Below the pieces are notes generated by a model. It did not search any database. It saw nothing but the letters and a program-made list of their open reading frames with translations, and was not told the origin of the DNA. From IMG/VR virus record IMGVR_UViG_3300029518_000077: 5,169 nt of DNA; one strand, written 5' to 3'. A program made the position numbers and the translations under genes. Shown piece after piece: positions 1 to 5,169 of the stretch. This DNA comes from a virus. Its lineage: Duplodnaviria; Heunggongvirae; Uroviricota; Caudoviricetes. Each line of letters opens with the position of its first letter. Position 1 is the stretch's first letter.

Positions 1-450
1 AACAAATTAATTTTTATAAATAACGATAATGCAGATGTGTTTTTAATGGCTCCATGCTTTGCTCTTGGCGCATTGTATGCTATAAACAAGGACAAAATAT
101 ACATTTCACCACATGCACCAATAGGATTTGCAATATTATATAATTTTGTGTCAGACCCAACACTCAAGCATATGCTTTTTTACTTTTGCGCATGTACATT
201 TTTCGTGTATTTATCAACAACAAAAATAATAAAATCAGTAAGAATAAAACATGATGTGTCATATGGCGTTTACTTGTGGGGCTTTTTAATACAGCAGATA
301 ACATTCAGGTTATTACCTGATATAAACCTGTACTTAAATCAAGTTTTATGCATAGCACTATCACTTATTGCTGGACTGATATCATTTATTGCGATAGAAA
401 AACCAGCAATGGATATTGGGAAAAAGATATCAAACAAATTCAGATATTAG
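1..450 (+). CDS. Acyltransferase family 3 membrane protein, C-terminal portion (likely phage-borne O-antigen acetyltransferase, Oac/OafA-like); 5' end outside the window
   Basis: ORF 37..450 is open in the same frame back to base 1 (NKLIFINNDNADVFLMAPCF...), so the gene probably starts upstream of the window. The product is strongly hydrophobic with multiple predicted transmembrane segments and has acyltransferase-3-like C-terminal motifs (SYGVYLWGF..., ...IEKPAMDIGKK). GC is about 25-30% against about 50% for the neighbouring genes. Stop TAG at 448-450 is followed directly by an intrinsic terminator. The position, convergent with the tailspike, matches where O-antigen modification genes sit in P22-like phages such as Sf6. 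Family assignment is by recalled motifs only. Confidence 0.62.
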   Translation, partial: NKLIFINNDNADVFLMAPCFALGALYAINKDKIYISPHAPIGFAILYNFVSDPTLKHMLFYFCACTFFVYLSTTKIIKSVRIKHDVSYGVYLWGFLIQQITFRLLPDINLYLNQVLCIALSLIAGLISFIAIEKPAMDIGKKISNKFRY

Positions 451-453
451 ATA

Positions 454-480
454 AAAAGGGGCTGAAAGCCCCTTTTTTTT
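454..480. terminator. Bidirectional rho-independent terminator shared by the convergent acyltransferase and tailspike genes
   Basis: Perfect inverted repeat AAAAGGGGC (454-462) / GCCCCTTTT (468-476) with loop TGAAA, followed by a T-run to 480 on the plus strand and flanked by an A-run (453-457) that gives a U-tract for minus-strand transcripts. It lies between the two convergent stop codons. Confidence 0.8.
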
Positions 481-2305
481 ACGTGGTAGTTGCGGATACC
501 TTCCATTCACCAGTTGATACGTATGTCCACTTCCACGGTCCGGTAGAAACCTGACCAAGCAATTCCCACTTGGTGCCAAACGGGAAATTAGTTGTATCTC
601 CCGTGGGTGGTGATACTNNNNNNNNNNNNNNNNNNNNNNNNNNNNNNNNNNNNNNNNNNNNNNNNNNNNNNNNNNNNNNNNNNNNNNNNNNNNNNNNNNN
701 NNNNNNNNNNNNNGTTGATCCTGCTCTGCCCACTACCCCATCTAATAGAATCAGTGGTGTTGTCGGGAATTACCGTACCATTAAAATTTGCAGTTGCATC
801 ATTAAGATATATGTATTTGCTAGATGAGCCTCCAGAGTAACTAGAAAAATGAGATGAAACCAATGAGATGAAACACGATTCCAGAGATACAGCTTCAACT
901 CCTCCATCATGATGATTAACCCCTCTAAATGCAGTTACGTTAATTCGACTACCATTTATATCAAATATTTTACCAGTGCTTTCTTCGCTTCCGCATCCAG
1001 ATAGATTCACTCCAGTACAATCTTTAAATTTATAGCCAGTACCATTAACGAAGTCAGCAGCCAAACAAGTCAGGCTGCTATATGTAATGTTATTAAAATC
1101 ATATGCAACACCTGAACATGTTTTCACATAAATATTGTTTAAATTATATGTGGTTCCACCTGCTTCGATTTTAACTCCAGTAACGACATCCTGAATAGTA
1201 ATGTTTTCCCATGTCTGCAACCAACTATCACTAGTGCGATAACCGGTTTTCACCCTATGAATATACAGGTCCTGAAGGCGCACATTGTAACTGATAGCGC
1301 TATATATCCCGTAATCACAAGGATTGGGCGCAGTATTTAGAATACTCAATCCAATTATTCTGGTGCTTCTTGTTTGTGTCCCGCTTAAATCACCTGATGT
1401 GTCACTATCCATATCTACCGCAACAATAAAGTCTNNNNNNNNNNNNNNNNNNNNNNNNNNNNNNNNNNNNNNNNNNNNNNNNNNNNTTTAATATCGTTAC
1501 CTGTTTTAATTAATCCACAGGAATCCATACCGCACCCCTCCAGCGTGACACGTGGAGGCACGATAGCGCCATACTTAATATCGTAAAATCCATTGAGTCT
1601 GAGCGTACCTCCTTCATATGGAAGGCATGCAGTCAGGCGTTCAAAGGCTTCACTGTTTTGCTCAGCCGTACATGATGTCATCATGCCACCGTTCTCTACC
1701 GGAATATCGATGTGGCTACCTGCTCTCTTCCATCGCTTACCGCCGGGGGTAACAAAAATATTCACACCATCGTCAGCTTCAGAACTGGAAAAGGCTATAA
1801 ACGTTCCTCCCCCAAGCCCGGGTGTGTCAGAGTAGTATCCACGAACAGTTATATTTTGCCCGACGAATGATGGCTCAATTGTTCTGAGCGTAGAAACGTC
1901 AGGGCATATTCCGATATATTTCTCTCCATCATCTTTCGCAATTTCTTCTTTTAACCTGATAATTCCCTGGTCAGGGTCGTACTTCAACACATTAGGAAAA
2001 TAGAACTGCTGCGCACCATACGCATCGTATACAGCCATAGAATGGCCTTGCACAGTTACGAACTTGGCAATCTGTCCGTTATATACCGGGTAACCAGCAG
2101 CGTTAATGATGATTGGCTGTGCAACAGGAACATGAGAACCATCTTCGTTCTCCACATAAACCTGAATCTGGTTTTCAGGATTTACCGGGTCAGTGTCAAT
2201 TTTACCGATATAAATTTTGCCATTGGCTACAGCTTTAAAAGAACGAGCCATAGTGAAGAGTTGAGAAGGCATGCTTACCACAACATTTGCGGTGATATCT
2301 GACAT
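479..2305 (-). CDS. Tailspike protein: P22 gp9-like N-terminal head-binding domain fused to a divergent receptor-binding domain; interrupted by two N-runs, 3' end uncertain (479 or 588)
   Basis: Minus-strand ORF 1415..2353 contains [59 protein letters not shown]...[31 protein letters not shown], a near-colinear match to the P22 tailspike head-binding domain as I recall it ([59 protein letters not shown]...[31 protein letters not shown]). The start is placed at ATG 2303-2305 (M of MSDITANV), with GGAG (complement of 2314-2317) 8 nt upstream. After YDPDQ the sequence is a different G/N/T/S-rich, beta-helix-like region. The ORF continues past the 1435-1486 gap in another frame (ORF 588..1412, open upstream to the gap: [11 protein letters not shown]...) and a third open segment in the original frame ends at TAA 479-481, abutting the terminator. 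Overall span of about 608 codons fits known P22-like tailspikes of roughly 620-710 aa. Confidence 0.82.
618..713. other. Run of 96 N (masked or unresolved sequence) inside the tailspike receptor-binding region
   Basis: Directly visible as n characters; the bases are not available for analysis. Confidence 0.97.
1435..1486. other. Run of 52 N (masked or unresolved sequence) inside the tailspike; reading frame differs on either side
   Basis: Directly visible. 52 is not a multiple of 3, and the open frames flanking the gap differ (codon phase 2 upstream, phase 0 downstream on the minus strand). Confidence 0.97.
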
Positions 2306-2426
2306 TTCATTGCTCCAGACGAATGATATGATGCAACCATGATGTGATTGCATACAGAAATGGTACTATTGAGTATTTATCCAGTAGGTTACGATGCCAT
2401 TCCACCCAACTGGTGAGGCATCAAGG
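2306..2426. promoter_or_regulatory. Divergent intergenic control region between tailspike and mnt starts; expected to hold the promoters and a repressor operator
   Basis: 121-bp non-coding gap between two divergent start codons. Contains inverted repeat ATGCAA (2331-2336) N11 TTGCAT (2348-2353), several ATGAT repeats (2323-2327, 2328-2332, 2339-2343) and an imperfect 22-bp dyad at 2366-2387. A possible minus-strand -10 TATCAT (complement of 2324-2329) lies upstream of the tailspike RBS. The -35/-10 assignment is not confident. Confidence 0.4.
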
Positions 2427-2687
2427 ATGTACAGCAAATACGACGAGGCGCAGTTTCACTTGAGACTTCCGCATGAACTCCACGCGAAAATTAAACAGCG
2501 TGCGAAGATGAATAACAGGTCTCTGAACTCAGAGATAATTGCAGCGATTGAAGAATCATTGGCTAAACAAAGCTCTGCATCCGTTTACATTGACGATGCA
2601 GAGCGTATGGCAGAACAACAATCTGATATGGTTAAGAAAATTGTCTTTGATACGCTCAAAGAGCTATATAAAAAAGACAGCAGCTAA
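2427..2687 (+). CDS. mnt: Mnt-like repressor, ribbon-helix-helix (Arc/Mnt/MetJ family)
   Basis: The 86-aa product MYSKYDEAQFHLRLPHELHAKIKQRAKMNNRSLNSEIIAAIEESLAKQSSASVYIDDAERMAEQQSDMVKKIVFDTLKELYKKDSS aligns along its length with P22 Mnt as I recall it (...HFNFRMPMEVREKLKFRAEANGRSMNSELLQIVQDALSK...NDAERLADEQSELVKKMVFDTLKDLYKKTT). Start is placed at ATG 2427 rather than the ORF-track ATG 2394 because GAGG (2415-2418) sits 8 nt upstream and the length then matches Mnt (83 aa). Stop TAA at 2685-2687. Confidence 0.85.
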   Translation: MYSKYDEAQFHLRLPHELHAKIKQRAKMNNRSLNSEIIAAIEESLAKQSSASVYIDDAERMAEQQSDMVKKIVFDTLKELYKKDSS

Positions 2688-2742: not shown

Positions 2743-4740
2743 CTATTCTGACAACGCATCAGACTTGGCACCTTGAGTCAGGGCGTTAATGGCCTTTTGC
2801 GCCTGCTGCATGGCTTTCTCAAACGCTGTTGATCCGCGTGGGGTGTTTGCCATTCTGAGCATTGCATTTCTGAATGGTTCGCTCTCATAGGCGCGAGTAA
2901 GAAGTCCGTAGCTTACCGCTGCGCCAGTTGTCGCCGGGTTCATTGCCGTCCCATACCCGATAATGAACGGGATGGTTTGCTGCCCTGTTGGTGTTGTTAC
3001 TGCCGCTTTTGCAGCCTGCTGCGTGGATTGCAGGTAGTTTTTTAATCCCTTCAGATAAGCAGCGTCCTGCCCCTTAAATGTGATGCCAGTCTGGTTTTGC
3101 AGGATGTTAAGCTGCCGAAGGAACTGGTCAGGGGATCCGCCAGATTTCTCCATCGCCTTTCCAATGATGCCATTGCGCATTTGCGCCCTGCCAACACGAC
3201 CAACTGAGTTATACAGCGTCTTAATTTCAGATTTGTTCTTGCTGAATAGCATGTTGTTGACAACTTCCGGCGTCAGGTCGCCTTTCATGAGAACATTCTT
3301 CAGCCTGGTATTCTTTAGTTTCGCCGCTTCGTCAGCGTAGACGGCATTGGCCTGCTGATATTTACGGAGAGTATCGTTGCCAAGATTCTGACCAATGGCA
3401 CCATTGATATCGTCTGTCATCGCCTTGTAAACGCGCTGAATGGCGGCATCGGAACGGTTTGGTAACACTGGTCGCTCACCCTTCACGTCCATTCTGAACT
3501 GGCTGCGCAGGTCGCTTAATTGCTTCAAATCCAGATTTACCGGACCATCAGGGCCAGCATTGCGAACAAGCTCATCACGATATGACTGAAGTTTTGAAAT
3601 TGTCTCGTTATCAGCTACCTTACCAAGCTTCTGCAGATTAGATATCTCAGTATCAATCTGCTGAATTGCTCGCGCAGGCTGAATGTTTACTCCAGCCATA
3701 GCATTCTGAACCTGCTCCAGTCGATTACCGGCGGCACGACGAATTCCTGATGTTTTCGCTTTAAGGCTGTCAATAACAACCGCTGGATCATACTCACCAA
3801 ATTTATCAGCAAATCTCTGCACCAACTGGCTTCTCGCTTCCTGTTGCGTTGCTCTCATTCCGCTTGTGCCAGCCAGAGGGATATTTTCTGCTGTAGTCTG
3901 CGCCATTTTTCCGACGCGGGAAGTTGGTTGTAACAGGTCTGTGGTGTGCAGAGGAATTCCTTCACGCTCTGCAAATCTGATGGCCTGCTGCGCTTCTGGC
4001 GCGATAGCACCACGAACGCCACGATAAGCAGCACCTAATCCACGTCCAGCAGCGTTAATAGCACCGCCAGCAAGTACACCAACGCCTAAATCGGTGGCGA
4101 GTGCTTCCGCATCATCTTTCGCACTATTTGCAGCAAGTGACCCGACTGCGTTTTCTGCTAGAAGGCGAGTTGCACCATGAACAATTCGACCAGCAAGTGT
4201 TGGTGCCTGTGTTGCAGCTCTCTCAACTCCAGCAGGAGTGAGGTAAGGCAATGCTTCAGCAAATACCCTTCCCTCTGTCGTTTGTGGAGTCAGCACGCCT
4301 TGCTGAAGGCCAAAGTCCTGTTCTAATCCCTGCGTTGTTACTCGTGGCGCTGGGTGATATGTCCCATCGCCAATTCCGAGTTTACCGCCAGCCCAAGCCG
4401 CCGCGCTTGTTACAGCATCGGCAACTGATGCAGGTATGTTTGCCACGTTCACGCCAGCCTGCACCAGTCCGCGACCAGTTTCTTTCACGGCTTCACCAAG
4501 ATCAGACACAAATCCACTTTGCTGTGGTTGTTGCTGTGCTTCTGGTTGTTGTGTCTCCACTGGCTGCACAGATGGCAATGGATAGGCAGCATAGAAAGCT
4601 TGCTTAGCCTGCTCTGCATTTTCTCCGGCTTGCGGGGCCACGACTTCATTGAAGTATTGCTCCTGAGCCTGCGCTTTTTGTTCTGGTGCTAACGCCTGAT
4701 ACTGTGGAGAGGCGATAACATCTTTCCATGCTTTAGCCAT
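2743..4740 (-). CDS. Ejection / DNA-transfer protein, probably P22 gp16-like (665 aa)
   Basis: Long minus-strand ORF at about 52% GC. The product is low-complexity and A/Q/G-rich (...QAQEQYFNEVVAPQAGENAEQAKQAF..., PEAQQQPQQSGF...) with no obvious enzymatic motif, typical of podovirus ejection proteins. It is the last late gene before the mnt/tailspike module, which is the position of gene 16 in P22. Its start ATG (4738-4740) overlaps the upstream gene's stop, and a G-rich Shine-Dalgarno (GGGGTGA) precedes it. Assignment rests on synteny and composition, not on a remembered alignment. Confidence 0.6.
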   Translation of the reverse strand: MAKAWKDVIASPQYQALAPEQKAQAQEQYFNEVVAPQAGENAEQAKQAFYAAYPLPSVQPVETQQPEAQQQPQQSGFVSDLGEAVKETGRGLVQAGVNVANIPASVADAVTSAAAWAGGKLGIGDGTYHPAPRVTTQGLEQDFGLQQGVLTPQTTEGRVFAEALPYLTPAGVERAATQAPTLAGRIVHGATRLLAENAVGSLAANSAKDDAEALATDLGVGVLAGGAINAAGRGLGAAYRGVRGAIAPEAQQAIRFAEREGIPLHTTDLLQPTSRVGKMAQTTAENIPLAGTSGMRATQQEARSQLVQRFADKFGEYDPAVVIDSLKAKTSGIRRAAGNRLEQVQNAMAGVNIQPARAIQQIDTEISNLQKLGKVADNETISKLQSYRDELVRNAGPDGPVNLDLKQLSDLRSQFRMDVKGERPVLPNRSDAAIQRVYKAMTDDINGAIGQNLGNDTLRKYQQANAVYADEAAKLKNTRLKNVLMKGDLTPEVVNNMLFSKNKSEIKTLYNSVGRVGRAQMRNGIIGKAMEKSGGSPDQFLRQLNILQNQTGITFKGQDAAYLKGLKNYLQSTQQAAKAAVTTPTGQQTIPFIIGYGTAMNPATTGAAVSYGLLTRAYESEPFRNAMLRMANTPRGSTAFEKAMQQAQKAINALTQGAKSDALSE

Positions 4741-5169
4741 TAATCACCCCATAGTGAAGAAAAGTTACTGCTGGCTGCTGGCTGTGATACCTGCTCAGAT
4801 TGCGGCAATGTCTGCGACGAAGAAGAAGTTCCTCTGTCAACTGCTGAAATAACCCGCAAAGCATCATAAGCTCGACCAGAAGCAGCTTTCAGCGAATTGA
4901 ACTGGTTTTCCATCTTCCGGCGCTTGGTATCAATGGTTTTTGTGGAGTCGCCAGGCTGAGGGAAATACATTTGATAATATTTTGACATTTCAGCAGGTGC
5001 GATAGCTGCCCCTGTTTCCTGACGGAGTATTGCCATTATTGCGTCATTAGCATTAACAACGTATTGCTGCTCTGTTGGGCTGAGCGTTAAGTTAGCCAGC
5101 GTCCCATTACCCAAAGCATTATTAATGATCGCCACTCGCTGTGGGCTAAGCTGGTCTTTCAGTGTATCT
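4740..5169 (-). CDS. Ejection protein, probably P22 gp20-like; C-terminal portion, 5' end outside the window
   Basis: The minus-strand frame is open from the window edge (5169) to stop TAA at 4740-4742. The ORF track begins it at a GTG (5133-5135), but the frame continues upstream without a stop (...DTLKDQLSPQRVAIINN...). It is translationally coupled to the downstream gene. Identity is inferred from gene order only. Confidence 0.45.
   Translation of the reverse strand, partial: DTLKDQLSPQRVAIINNALGNGTLANLTLSPTEQQYVVNANDAIMAILRQETGAAIAPAEMSKYYQMYFPQPGDSTKTIDTKRRKMENQFNSLKAASGRAYDALRVISAVDRGTSSSSQTLPQSEQVSQPAASSNFSSLWGD

Follow-up and report, generated by a model that had tools for sequence, protein, structure and literature searches.

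The mnt gene of phage P22 belongs to the immI region, which lies between gene 16 and the tailspike gene, gene 9, and which is present as a full set in P22 and epsilon34. Reduced forms of this region have been described as well. In ST64T, ST104 and a Paratyphi prophage, this place is occupied solely by mnt and one small gene (Villafane et al. 2008, PMC2629481), and for the orphan mnt of phage L it has been raised that the gene has another function or is a remnant (10.1101/2020.10.05.325894). Mnt and Arc may influence the level of tailspike in P22 (PMC2629481), and the virion genes of phage L have been assumed to be expressed from the late transcript (10.1101/2020.10.05.325894). Here, a further orphan mnt is analyzed, which is located at 2427-2687 on the plus strand of IMG/VR record IMGVR_UViG_3300029518_000077, a stretch of 5,169 nucleotides of viral DNA that is referred to as the window. 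In this stretch, mnt and the tailspike gene diverge from a gap of exactly 121 bp between their start codons (2306-2426). The comparison with related loci shows that mnt and a matching operator are conserved as a pair, and on balance it is probable that the locus is a self-regulated Mnt cassette, an 'ant moron' reduced to mnt, with the tailspike being expressed chiefly by read-through from the late operon.

The 86-residue product of mnt (ATG at 2427, stop codon at 2685-2687) is a member of the Mnt repressor family within the Arc/MetJ ribbon-helix-helix superfamily. It contains an Arc-like ribbon-helix-helix DNA-binding domain (Pfam PF03869, Arc; E = 7.5e-15, 54.9 bits against a cut-off of 20.4) and, at the C-terminus, the Mnt tetramerisation helix (PF11423, Repressor_Mnt; E = 3.4e-14). 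Both parts are also matched at the level of known structures, by PDB 1mnt over residues 6-79 (E = 3.4e-19) and by the Mnt tetramerisation domain, PDB 1qey, over residues 56-84 (E = 1.7e-8), and the identity with P22 Mnt is 48.8%. A start at 2394, which yields the 97-codon form annotated in Sf101, was rejected, as the alignment with P22 Mnt and the ribosome-binding site GAGG (2415-2418, plus strand) favour 2427; the ATG of the longer form is made up of the conserved -10 element TACGAT plus a G. In many RefSeq phage records and in PHROG 795 (phrog_795), Mnt homologues are called 'partition protein ATPase', including the one of Sf101 (locus L001 4145-4438). This label is a propagated misannotation, while the mnt of IME10 is unannotated.

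Along the window, a gp16-type DNA ejection protein gene on the minus strand is followed by mnt on the plus strand, the 121-bp gap and the tailspike gene on the minus strand, with the coordinates that the original prediction had given. No immI gene other than mnt lies between the homologues of genes 16 and 9, as in the mnt-only 'ant moron' of the L/ST64T type, and Sf101, VE-T9, L, Gally and VSe13 show this organisation too. No arc, ant, SieA, orf59a, hkcB or HNH homologue was found in the window by tblastn at E <= 1e-4, using as queries P22 Arc, Ant, SieA and orf59a, Arc and Ant of Kapi1, Ant of CUS-3, the epsilon34 hkcB homologue and an HNH gene. The gap itself contains no Arc-like open reading frame (ORF). 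Rfam, which includes a sar family, gave no sar match in the window even at E <= 1; the two weak Rfam matches that were obtained are far below the gathering scores and lie elsewhere. Furthermore, the run of N at 2691-2711 probably hides about 55 nt, judging from its length in close relatives, which would be too short for arc. The claim that mnt stands here without arc, ant and sieA is thus borne out for the window, which lacks both arc and ant of a P22-type immI.

The arrangement is not unusual: mnt-only 'ant morons' were already described for L, ST64T and ST104 (PMC2629481; 10.1101/2020.10.05.325894). The layout is common, and the window is a further specificity member of a known arrangement. 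Among the phages that had been proposed for comparison, P22 has the full set, ST64T has only mnt, CUS-3 has two mnt genes and ant without arc, and Sf6 and HK620 have no mnt, with matches being restricted to the flanking genes (see also PMC2629481). The mnt gene diverges from the tailspike gene over 121-146 bp in L, Gally, VSe13, Sf101 and IME10, and over 323 bp in JEP4, where the gap still holds a vestigial tailspike start. The junction of the window is found at 97-98% identity in Sf101 and IME10 and occurs in 253 of 5,426 complete E. coli genomes (~5%).

The relation between Mnt and its operator was addressed in a survey of 372 Mnt-like genes of at least 70 residues from about 330 loci, in which a palindrome was sought up to 130 nt upstream of mnt (a single-protein scan of genome contigs returned 5 loci). 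The proteins form three main N-terminal classes. Class A, with P22 and epsilon34, has the strand DDPHFNFRMP; the palindrome GGTCCACnGTGGACC is present in 75/75 loci that have an upstream region of their own, and arc-ant is the neighbour in 81/82. Class B, with L, ST64T and Gally, has the strand DDPQFNLRLP, the palindrome AGACCACnGTGGTCT in 85/85 loci and the tailspike gene as neighbour in 85/85. Class C, to which the window, Sf101, JEP4 and VSe13 belong, has the strand YDEAQFHLRL and TACC-N5-GGTA in all 161 loci, with the tailspike gene as neighbour in ~160 of them; in some class C loci an HNH gene or another insert lies between the two genes. The class of the dyad pairs one-to-one with the N-terminal class of Mnt in 321 loci, and in all classes the palindrome ends 1-2 bases before the ATTG of the mnt -35 element, which is the location of the annotated P22 Omnt.

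In the window, the class C dyad is ATACAGAAATGGTAC at 2352-2366, the sole match that the window contains; the class consensus is rTACC-nAAAn-GGTAC (rTACC-N5-GGTAC). P22 Omnt itself, for which a search had been suggested, is absent from the window with up to 3 mismatches. The original prediction of an operator unlike that of P22 therefore holds, the dyad in the gap occupying the place that corresponds to P22 Omnt and being matched to the protein class. The predicted difference in the recognition strand is likewise confirmed, with QFHLRLP in the window and HFNFRMP in P22. Residues 2, 6, 8 and 10 of the N-terminal strand of P22 Mnt reportedly read the operator, as Knight and Sauer are said to have found in 1989. 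The classes differ in this strand at the equivalents of P22 residues 6 and 8 (H/N, Q/N and Q/H). Because of the one-to-one covariation at a homologous position, there is good indirect evidence that the 2352-2366 dyad is the Mnt-binding site. In the Sf101 genome (38.7 kb) there is a single TACCN5GGTA, where 0.07 would be expected, the JEP4 genome likewise contains one, and the class B site is present once in the phage L genome; the scan of viral contigs used a pattern including the flanking ATTG and could thus recover only the known context. Either the joint divergence of protein and operator into classes took place in the orphan state, or orphan mnt genes have originated more than once. The three-class comparison is new and suggests that neither orphan Mnt nor its operator has lost its function and that the two evolve together.

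The left arm of the window operator deviates from that of its class-mates. Position 2356 is an A, while 158 of 161 class C loci, like each of the 12 diverse class-mates in the alignment, have a C (ATACAG versus ATACCG). The majority operator in Sf101, IME10 and E. coli prophages is ATACCGAAATGGTAC, and the rare ATACAG variant of the window is common to only two other loci (L021 and L077). The A at 2356 may weaken the binding of Mnt. A second candidate, the 23-bp palindrome at 2331-2353, was rejected as an operator, since it occurs in one subtype only and is replaced by unrelated sequence in class-mates, whereas the 15-bp dyad is kept in all.

In addition to the operator, the gene itself is well preserved. 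The ratio of nonsynonymous to synonymous substitution (dN/dS) of mnt is ~0.15-0.17, the value for the close pair with Escherichia sp. E1V33 being 0.17. Between subtypes the proportion of synonymous differences (pS) is 0.70-0.98, which amounts to saturation, with a proportion of nonsynonymous differences (pN) of 0.20-0.26. A length of 84-88 codons is seen in 163 class C genes. These values indicate that orphan mnt is under purifying selection and is not a decaying relic.

Compared to P22 immI, the window locus is alike in protein family and domain pair, in its place between the gene 16 and gene 9 homologues, in the orientation of mnt and in the distance from the dyad to the -35 element of Pmnt. 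It differs by the lack of arc, ant, sar and sieA, by QFHLRLP instead of HFNFRMP, by the loss of the strong Pant hexamers and by the operator, which is rTACC-N5-GGTAC in the window and AGGTCCACnGTGGACCT in P22. With L, ST64T and ST104 it shares an orphan mnt divergent from the tailspike gene (gap of ~135 bp in these phages), the lack of arc, ant and sieA and a unique retained operator. However, the Mnt of L is of the QFNLRL class with the operator AGACCACnGTGGTCT, L keeps a 'boundary' hairpin upstream of the tailspike gene that is replaced in the window, and L has orf62 between gene 16 and mnt. Sf101, IME10 and the E. coli prophages at the argW-yfdC site have the same operator class and the same 121-bp gap, although Sf101 has no small ORF after mnt and carries the operator ATACCGAAATGGTAC. 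JEP4 and VSe13 represent a second subtype of class C, which shares the N-terminal strand, the operator arms and an mnt facing the tailspike gene, but with 63% protein identity and a 17-bp Pmnt spacer.

The conservation of the gap was assessed in 13 class C leaders, which represent five genera (among them Escherichia, Citrobacter, Serratia and Buttiauxella) and include uncultured viral contigs. The operator arms, the ATTG of the -35 element, TTACGATGC with the -10 element TACGAT, and AGGCAT of the ribosome-binding site are invariant, and every leader of classes B and C retains AGGCAT. Variability is seen on the left side of the operator and within the -35/-10 spacer of the mnt promoter. The window homologue of P22 Pmnt (TTGAGA-17-TATCAT) is found on the plus strand at 2369-2395, with a -35 element TTGAGT (2369-2374), a 15-bp spacer and a -10 element TACGAT (2390-2395). 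The operator abuts this -35 element, with its centre at about -43 to -45 from the inferred transcript start; the distance from the operator centre to the first base of the -10 element is 31 bp in the window and 33 bp in P22, L and JEP4. Promoters were scored with a sigma-70 matrix approximating that of Harley and Reynolds, and random 121-nt windows of the Sf101 genome served as the null. P22 Pmnt scores 12.69 bits with this matrix, compared to 9.24 in L, 9.05 in Gally, 7.63 in JEP4 and VSe13 and only 5.5 in the window, the low value of the latter being due to the short spacer.

The original prediction had left room for the survival of a Pant-like promoter in the gap. The best tailspike-facing match in the window lies at 2372-2400 on the minus strand (ATGGCA at 2400-2395, 17 bp, AATACT at 2377-2372) and scores 7.06 bits, against 14.98 for P22 Pant. 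This is chance level, as 29% of the random windows reach this score and the 95th percentile of the null is 8.99. The equivalent positions score 5.6 in L, -0.5 in Gally and 1.4 in JEP4, and a separate consensus scan gave no minus-strand promoter in the gap. Furthermore, a tailspike-facing -10 element homologous to TATATT of P22 Pant would fall within the variable spacer of the mnt promoter, so that its place is not conserved. As judged from these scores, a strong Pant overlapping the operator is not kept in the window, and survival of such a promoter finds no support.

The mechanism that we consider on balance probable is that of a self-regulated Mnt cassette. Mnt, which is expected to be a tetramer like P22 Mnt, would bind the single 15-bp dyad at 2352-2366. 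As the dyad abuts the mnt -35 element, with its centre ~43 bp upstream of the inferred mnt start, bound Mnt would set its own level, and in relatives it probably also sets the level of a downstream ORF for a 25-codon membrane peptide. The strong, opposite-facing antirepressor promoter of P22 appears not to be kept, so that most tailspike would derive from the antiterminated transcript of the late operon, which crosses mnt in the antisense direction. Tailspike is expressed by Sf6 and HK620 although these phages lack mnt, which means that no such promoter is needed in this phage group (PMC2629481). The operator covers the region of a leftward start and no terminator lies between it and the tailspike start, so a modest silencing in the lysogen is possible: bound Mnt would cover the site of any residual tailspike-directed initiation and would at most silence weak leftward transcription. 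P22 Mnt stimulates Pmnt in vitro, largely through shutting off the competing Pant. At the position of the window operator, Mnt could either stimulate or damp its own promoter. The binding of Mnt, the sign of the autoregulation and the source of the tailspike transcripts are inferences for the window.

Several points weigh against this mechanism. It is not obvious what a phage would gain from a repressor that acts only on itself, yet both the gene and its operator show strong conservation, which, without another visible target, leads one to expect a further target or effect. The mnt promoter of the window, with its 15-bp spacer and 5.5 bits, is a poor match, and there are better plus-strand candidates over the tailspike start (2299-2332; CTGACA-17-AATGAT and ATTTCA-17-TATGAT, 8.7 and 9.0 bits), which are directed toward mnt and lie upstream of the operator. 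Use of one of these would alter the regulatory logic, as the operator would then lie downstream of the mnt transcript start and Mnt would probably repress its own transcription. The approximate matrix would also miss weak or activator-dependent promoters, and in the literature no transcript mapping or binding data were found for any orphan Mnt. The question that is sharpened by the comparison is what a conserved repressor with one operator and no antirepressor regulates.

The original prediction answered this question with the tailspike: a Pant-derived promoter in the gap would drive the tailspike gene and Mnt would repress it, creating a lysogeny-linked switch on the receptor-binding protein. 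The geometry inherited from P22 fits this idea, as positions +1 to about +13 of a transcript starting from ATGGCA-17-AATACT would fall within the operator, and the stretch between operator and tailspike start contains no terminator, the ant terminator of P22 not being retained in the orphans. Both orphan classes are tailspike-adjacent (246 loci), are under purifying selection and have no other operator in the genome, and with this adjacency and a single operator the tailspike gene is the only other neighbouring gene for Mnt to act on. The possible influence of Mnt and Arc on the P22 tailspike level (PMC2629481) points in the same direction. However, the adjacency is a simple consequence of where the moron is fixed, between genes 16 and 9, the candidate promoter scores no better than chance, the homologous sites score lower in other orphans, the place of the -10 element is not conserved within class C, and the consensus scan detected no minus-strand promoter in the gap. 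In addition, there are relatives in which an inserted HNH gene or an insert of 260-420 bp separates the operator from the tailspike gene, and these prophages look viable. Direct control through a Pant-like promoter is thus possible but unsupported, no conserved tailspike-facing promoter being found, and we consider it unlikely. A broader variant is similarly doubtful, in which both orphan classes would long have been kept as tailspike-linked regulators, with Mnt at its single operator gating tailspike transcription via a weak, non-consensus leftward promoter that it represses or by blocking read-through that is not antiterminated. Such gating, if true, would couple tailspike synthesis to the lysogenic or lytic state without the main immunity region being involved, but the present evidence reveals no new kind of control of a receptor-binding protein.

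Alternatively, the operator could be autoregulatory only while the selected function of Mnt lies elsewhere, in cargo of its own operon, such as the 25-codon ORF, or at sites in the host chromosome or in other phages. The conservation of an otherwise target-less repressor does need explaining, and 76 of 163 class C loci, and probably the window as well, have a small ORF led by GGAGG after mnt. The conservation of mnt is, however, no lower in Sf101, JEP4, VSe13, L and Gally, which do not have this small ORF, and no second operator is present in three whole phage genomes (Sf101, JEP4 and L). Class B and C operators never stand before arc-ant in the 246 orphan loci, which also led us to reject trans-immunity directed at superinfecting phages whose ant is placed behind such an operator; the one apparent exception (L152) is an inserted ant/rha-like fragment. 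A selected function elsewhere is rated as improbable.

That mnt is a functionless remnant of an immI degraded by deletion of arc and ant, as raised for phage L (10.1101/2020.10.05.325894) and in keeping with the loss of the strong P22-type Pant and of all other immI genes, is very improbable, since the low dN/dS with saturated synonymous sites between subtypes, the normal length of 163 class C genes, the invariance of operator arms and promoter hexamers across Escherichia, Citrobacter, Serratia and Buttiauxella and the co-divergence of protein and operator into distinct classes all disfavour it. The orphan mnt of L and ST64T had earlier been left as 'another function or a remnant', and the comparison argues against the latter. 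Apart from their biological role, the three natural protein-operator pairs form a series for studies of ribbon-helix-helix specificity.

The leader of the tailspike gene contains a ribosome-binding site, GGAG, which was read from the sequence at 2313-2316 (minus strand), and the sequence TCTGGAGCA upstream of the tailspike start is conserved in P22, L, Gally and VSe13. An inverted repeat at 2331-2353 on the minus strand, 26-48 nt upstream of the tailspike start, could form a hairpin with a 9-bp stem (AUGCAAUCA / UGGUUGCAU). It appears in both the minimum free energy and the centroid folds, while shuffled sequences fold as well as the stretch does as a whole. At the equivalent position, P22, epsilon34, L, Gally and VSe13 have another conserved hairpin-containing 'boundary' sequence (CCGTAGCCAyGCTGCGGCgATTCCTTG), of which P22 has two copies. 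The gap length in class C is 121 bp in 67 loci and 131-135 bp in others, and for classes B and C together the gap mostly measures 121-148 bp, with inserts in some loci. VE-T9 and ~14 further class C loci, as well as phage Kapi1, carry an inserted HNH endonuclease gene precisely where the tailspike gene starts (L002 5361-5819; L010 743-1243). The first bases of the tailspike gene are duplicated beside this insertion; the window has no HNH gene.

The small ORF downstream of mnt is represented in the window by its last 12 codons (GFCTFLVFAKLF and a stop codon) at 2713-2751 on the plus strand, its start being hidden in the run of N at 2691-2711. In the relatives L021, L077 and L002 it is an unannotated hydrophobic ORF of 25 codons (MQRDMLNIAFYIFGFCTFLVFAKLF) with a GGAGG site and a start 20 nt after the mnt stop codon (L002 6232-6309; L021 ~3285-3362, L002 being the VE-T9 locus). 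Its end overlaps the 3' end of the ejection protein gene on the opposite strand, and neither PHROG nor PADLOC gave a match for it.

A second ribbon-helix-helix repressor is encoded ~2 kb away in many of the prophages that have a class C mnt beside the tailspike gene, as seen in L005 (3270-5930) and in JEP4-type viral contigs (e.g., L109 and L108). These second repressors have the N-terminus MSKFPSHEMDRFNIRLP or MSEKDESNFIERFTVRMP, are divergent from an arc-like gene and Rha/KilA antirepressor-like genes, and each have their own palindromes upstream.

The window as a whole comes from a P22-like (Lederbergvirus) prophage, in which it forms the distal end of the late operon. The gp16-type ejection protein of 665 residues (2743-4740, minus strand, convergent with mnt) matches phrog_770, 'DNA transfer protein' (E = 1.6e-239), and has 33% identity to P22 gp16 (tblastn E = 2.7e-73). 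It is preceded on the same strand by the C-terminal part of another ejection protein in the gp20 position (4740-5169, with an ORF at 4740-5135), whose equivalent in E. coli relatives is annotated as 'phage DNA ejection protein'. The tailspike gene (479-2305, minus strand) starts at 2303-2305 (CAT on the plus strand); its end was placed by mapping from the VE-T9 tailspike (locus L002, 3479-5296), and its frame is interrupted by runs of N at 618-713 and 1435-1486. The head-binding domain (~1967-2305) is recognised by Pfam Head_binding (E = 5.8e-68), and the first 110 residues have 75% identity with P22 gp9. In most E. coli prophages the similarity to the window ends at ~1967, the end of this domain, which is the usual mosaic joint for the exchange of receptor-binding domains; among the E. 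coli prophages compared, only VE-T9 matches the rest of the tailspike.

E. coli VE-T9 is the nearest complete relative, and its prophage adjoins intS, tRNA-Arg and yfdC. The runs of N differ in length from the sequence that they replace, with 96 versus 92 nt in VE-T9 at 618-713, 52 versus 47 nt at 1435-1486 and 21 versus 55 nt at 2691-2711, so that coordinates and reading frames across them are unreliable. At the other end of the window, convergent with the tailspike gene, lies the C-terminal part of an acyltransferase of the O-antigen acetyltransferase type (37-450, plus strand; phrog_3333 O-acetyltransferase, E = 1.2e-8), the homologue of which is labelled 'acyltransferase family protein' in E. 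coli VE-T9 and 'O-acetyltransferase' in Sf101. Between these two convergent genes, a G+C-rich hairpin with flanking A and T runs is present at 449-480 (aaaaaGGGGCtgaaaGCCCCtttttttt), which looks like a bidirectional terminator.

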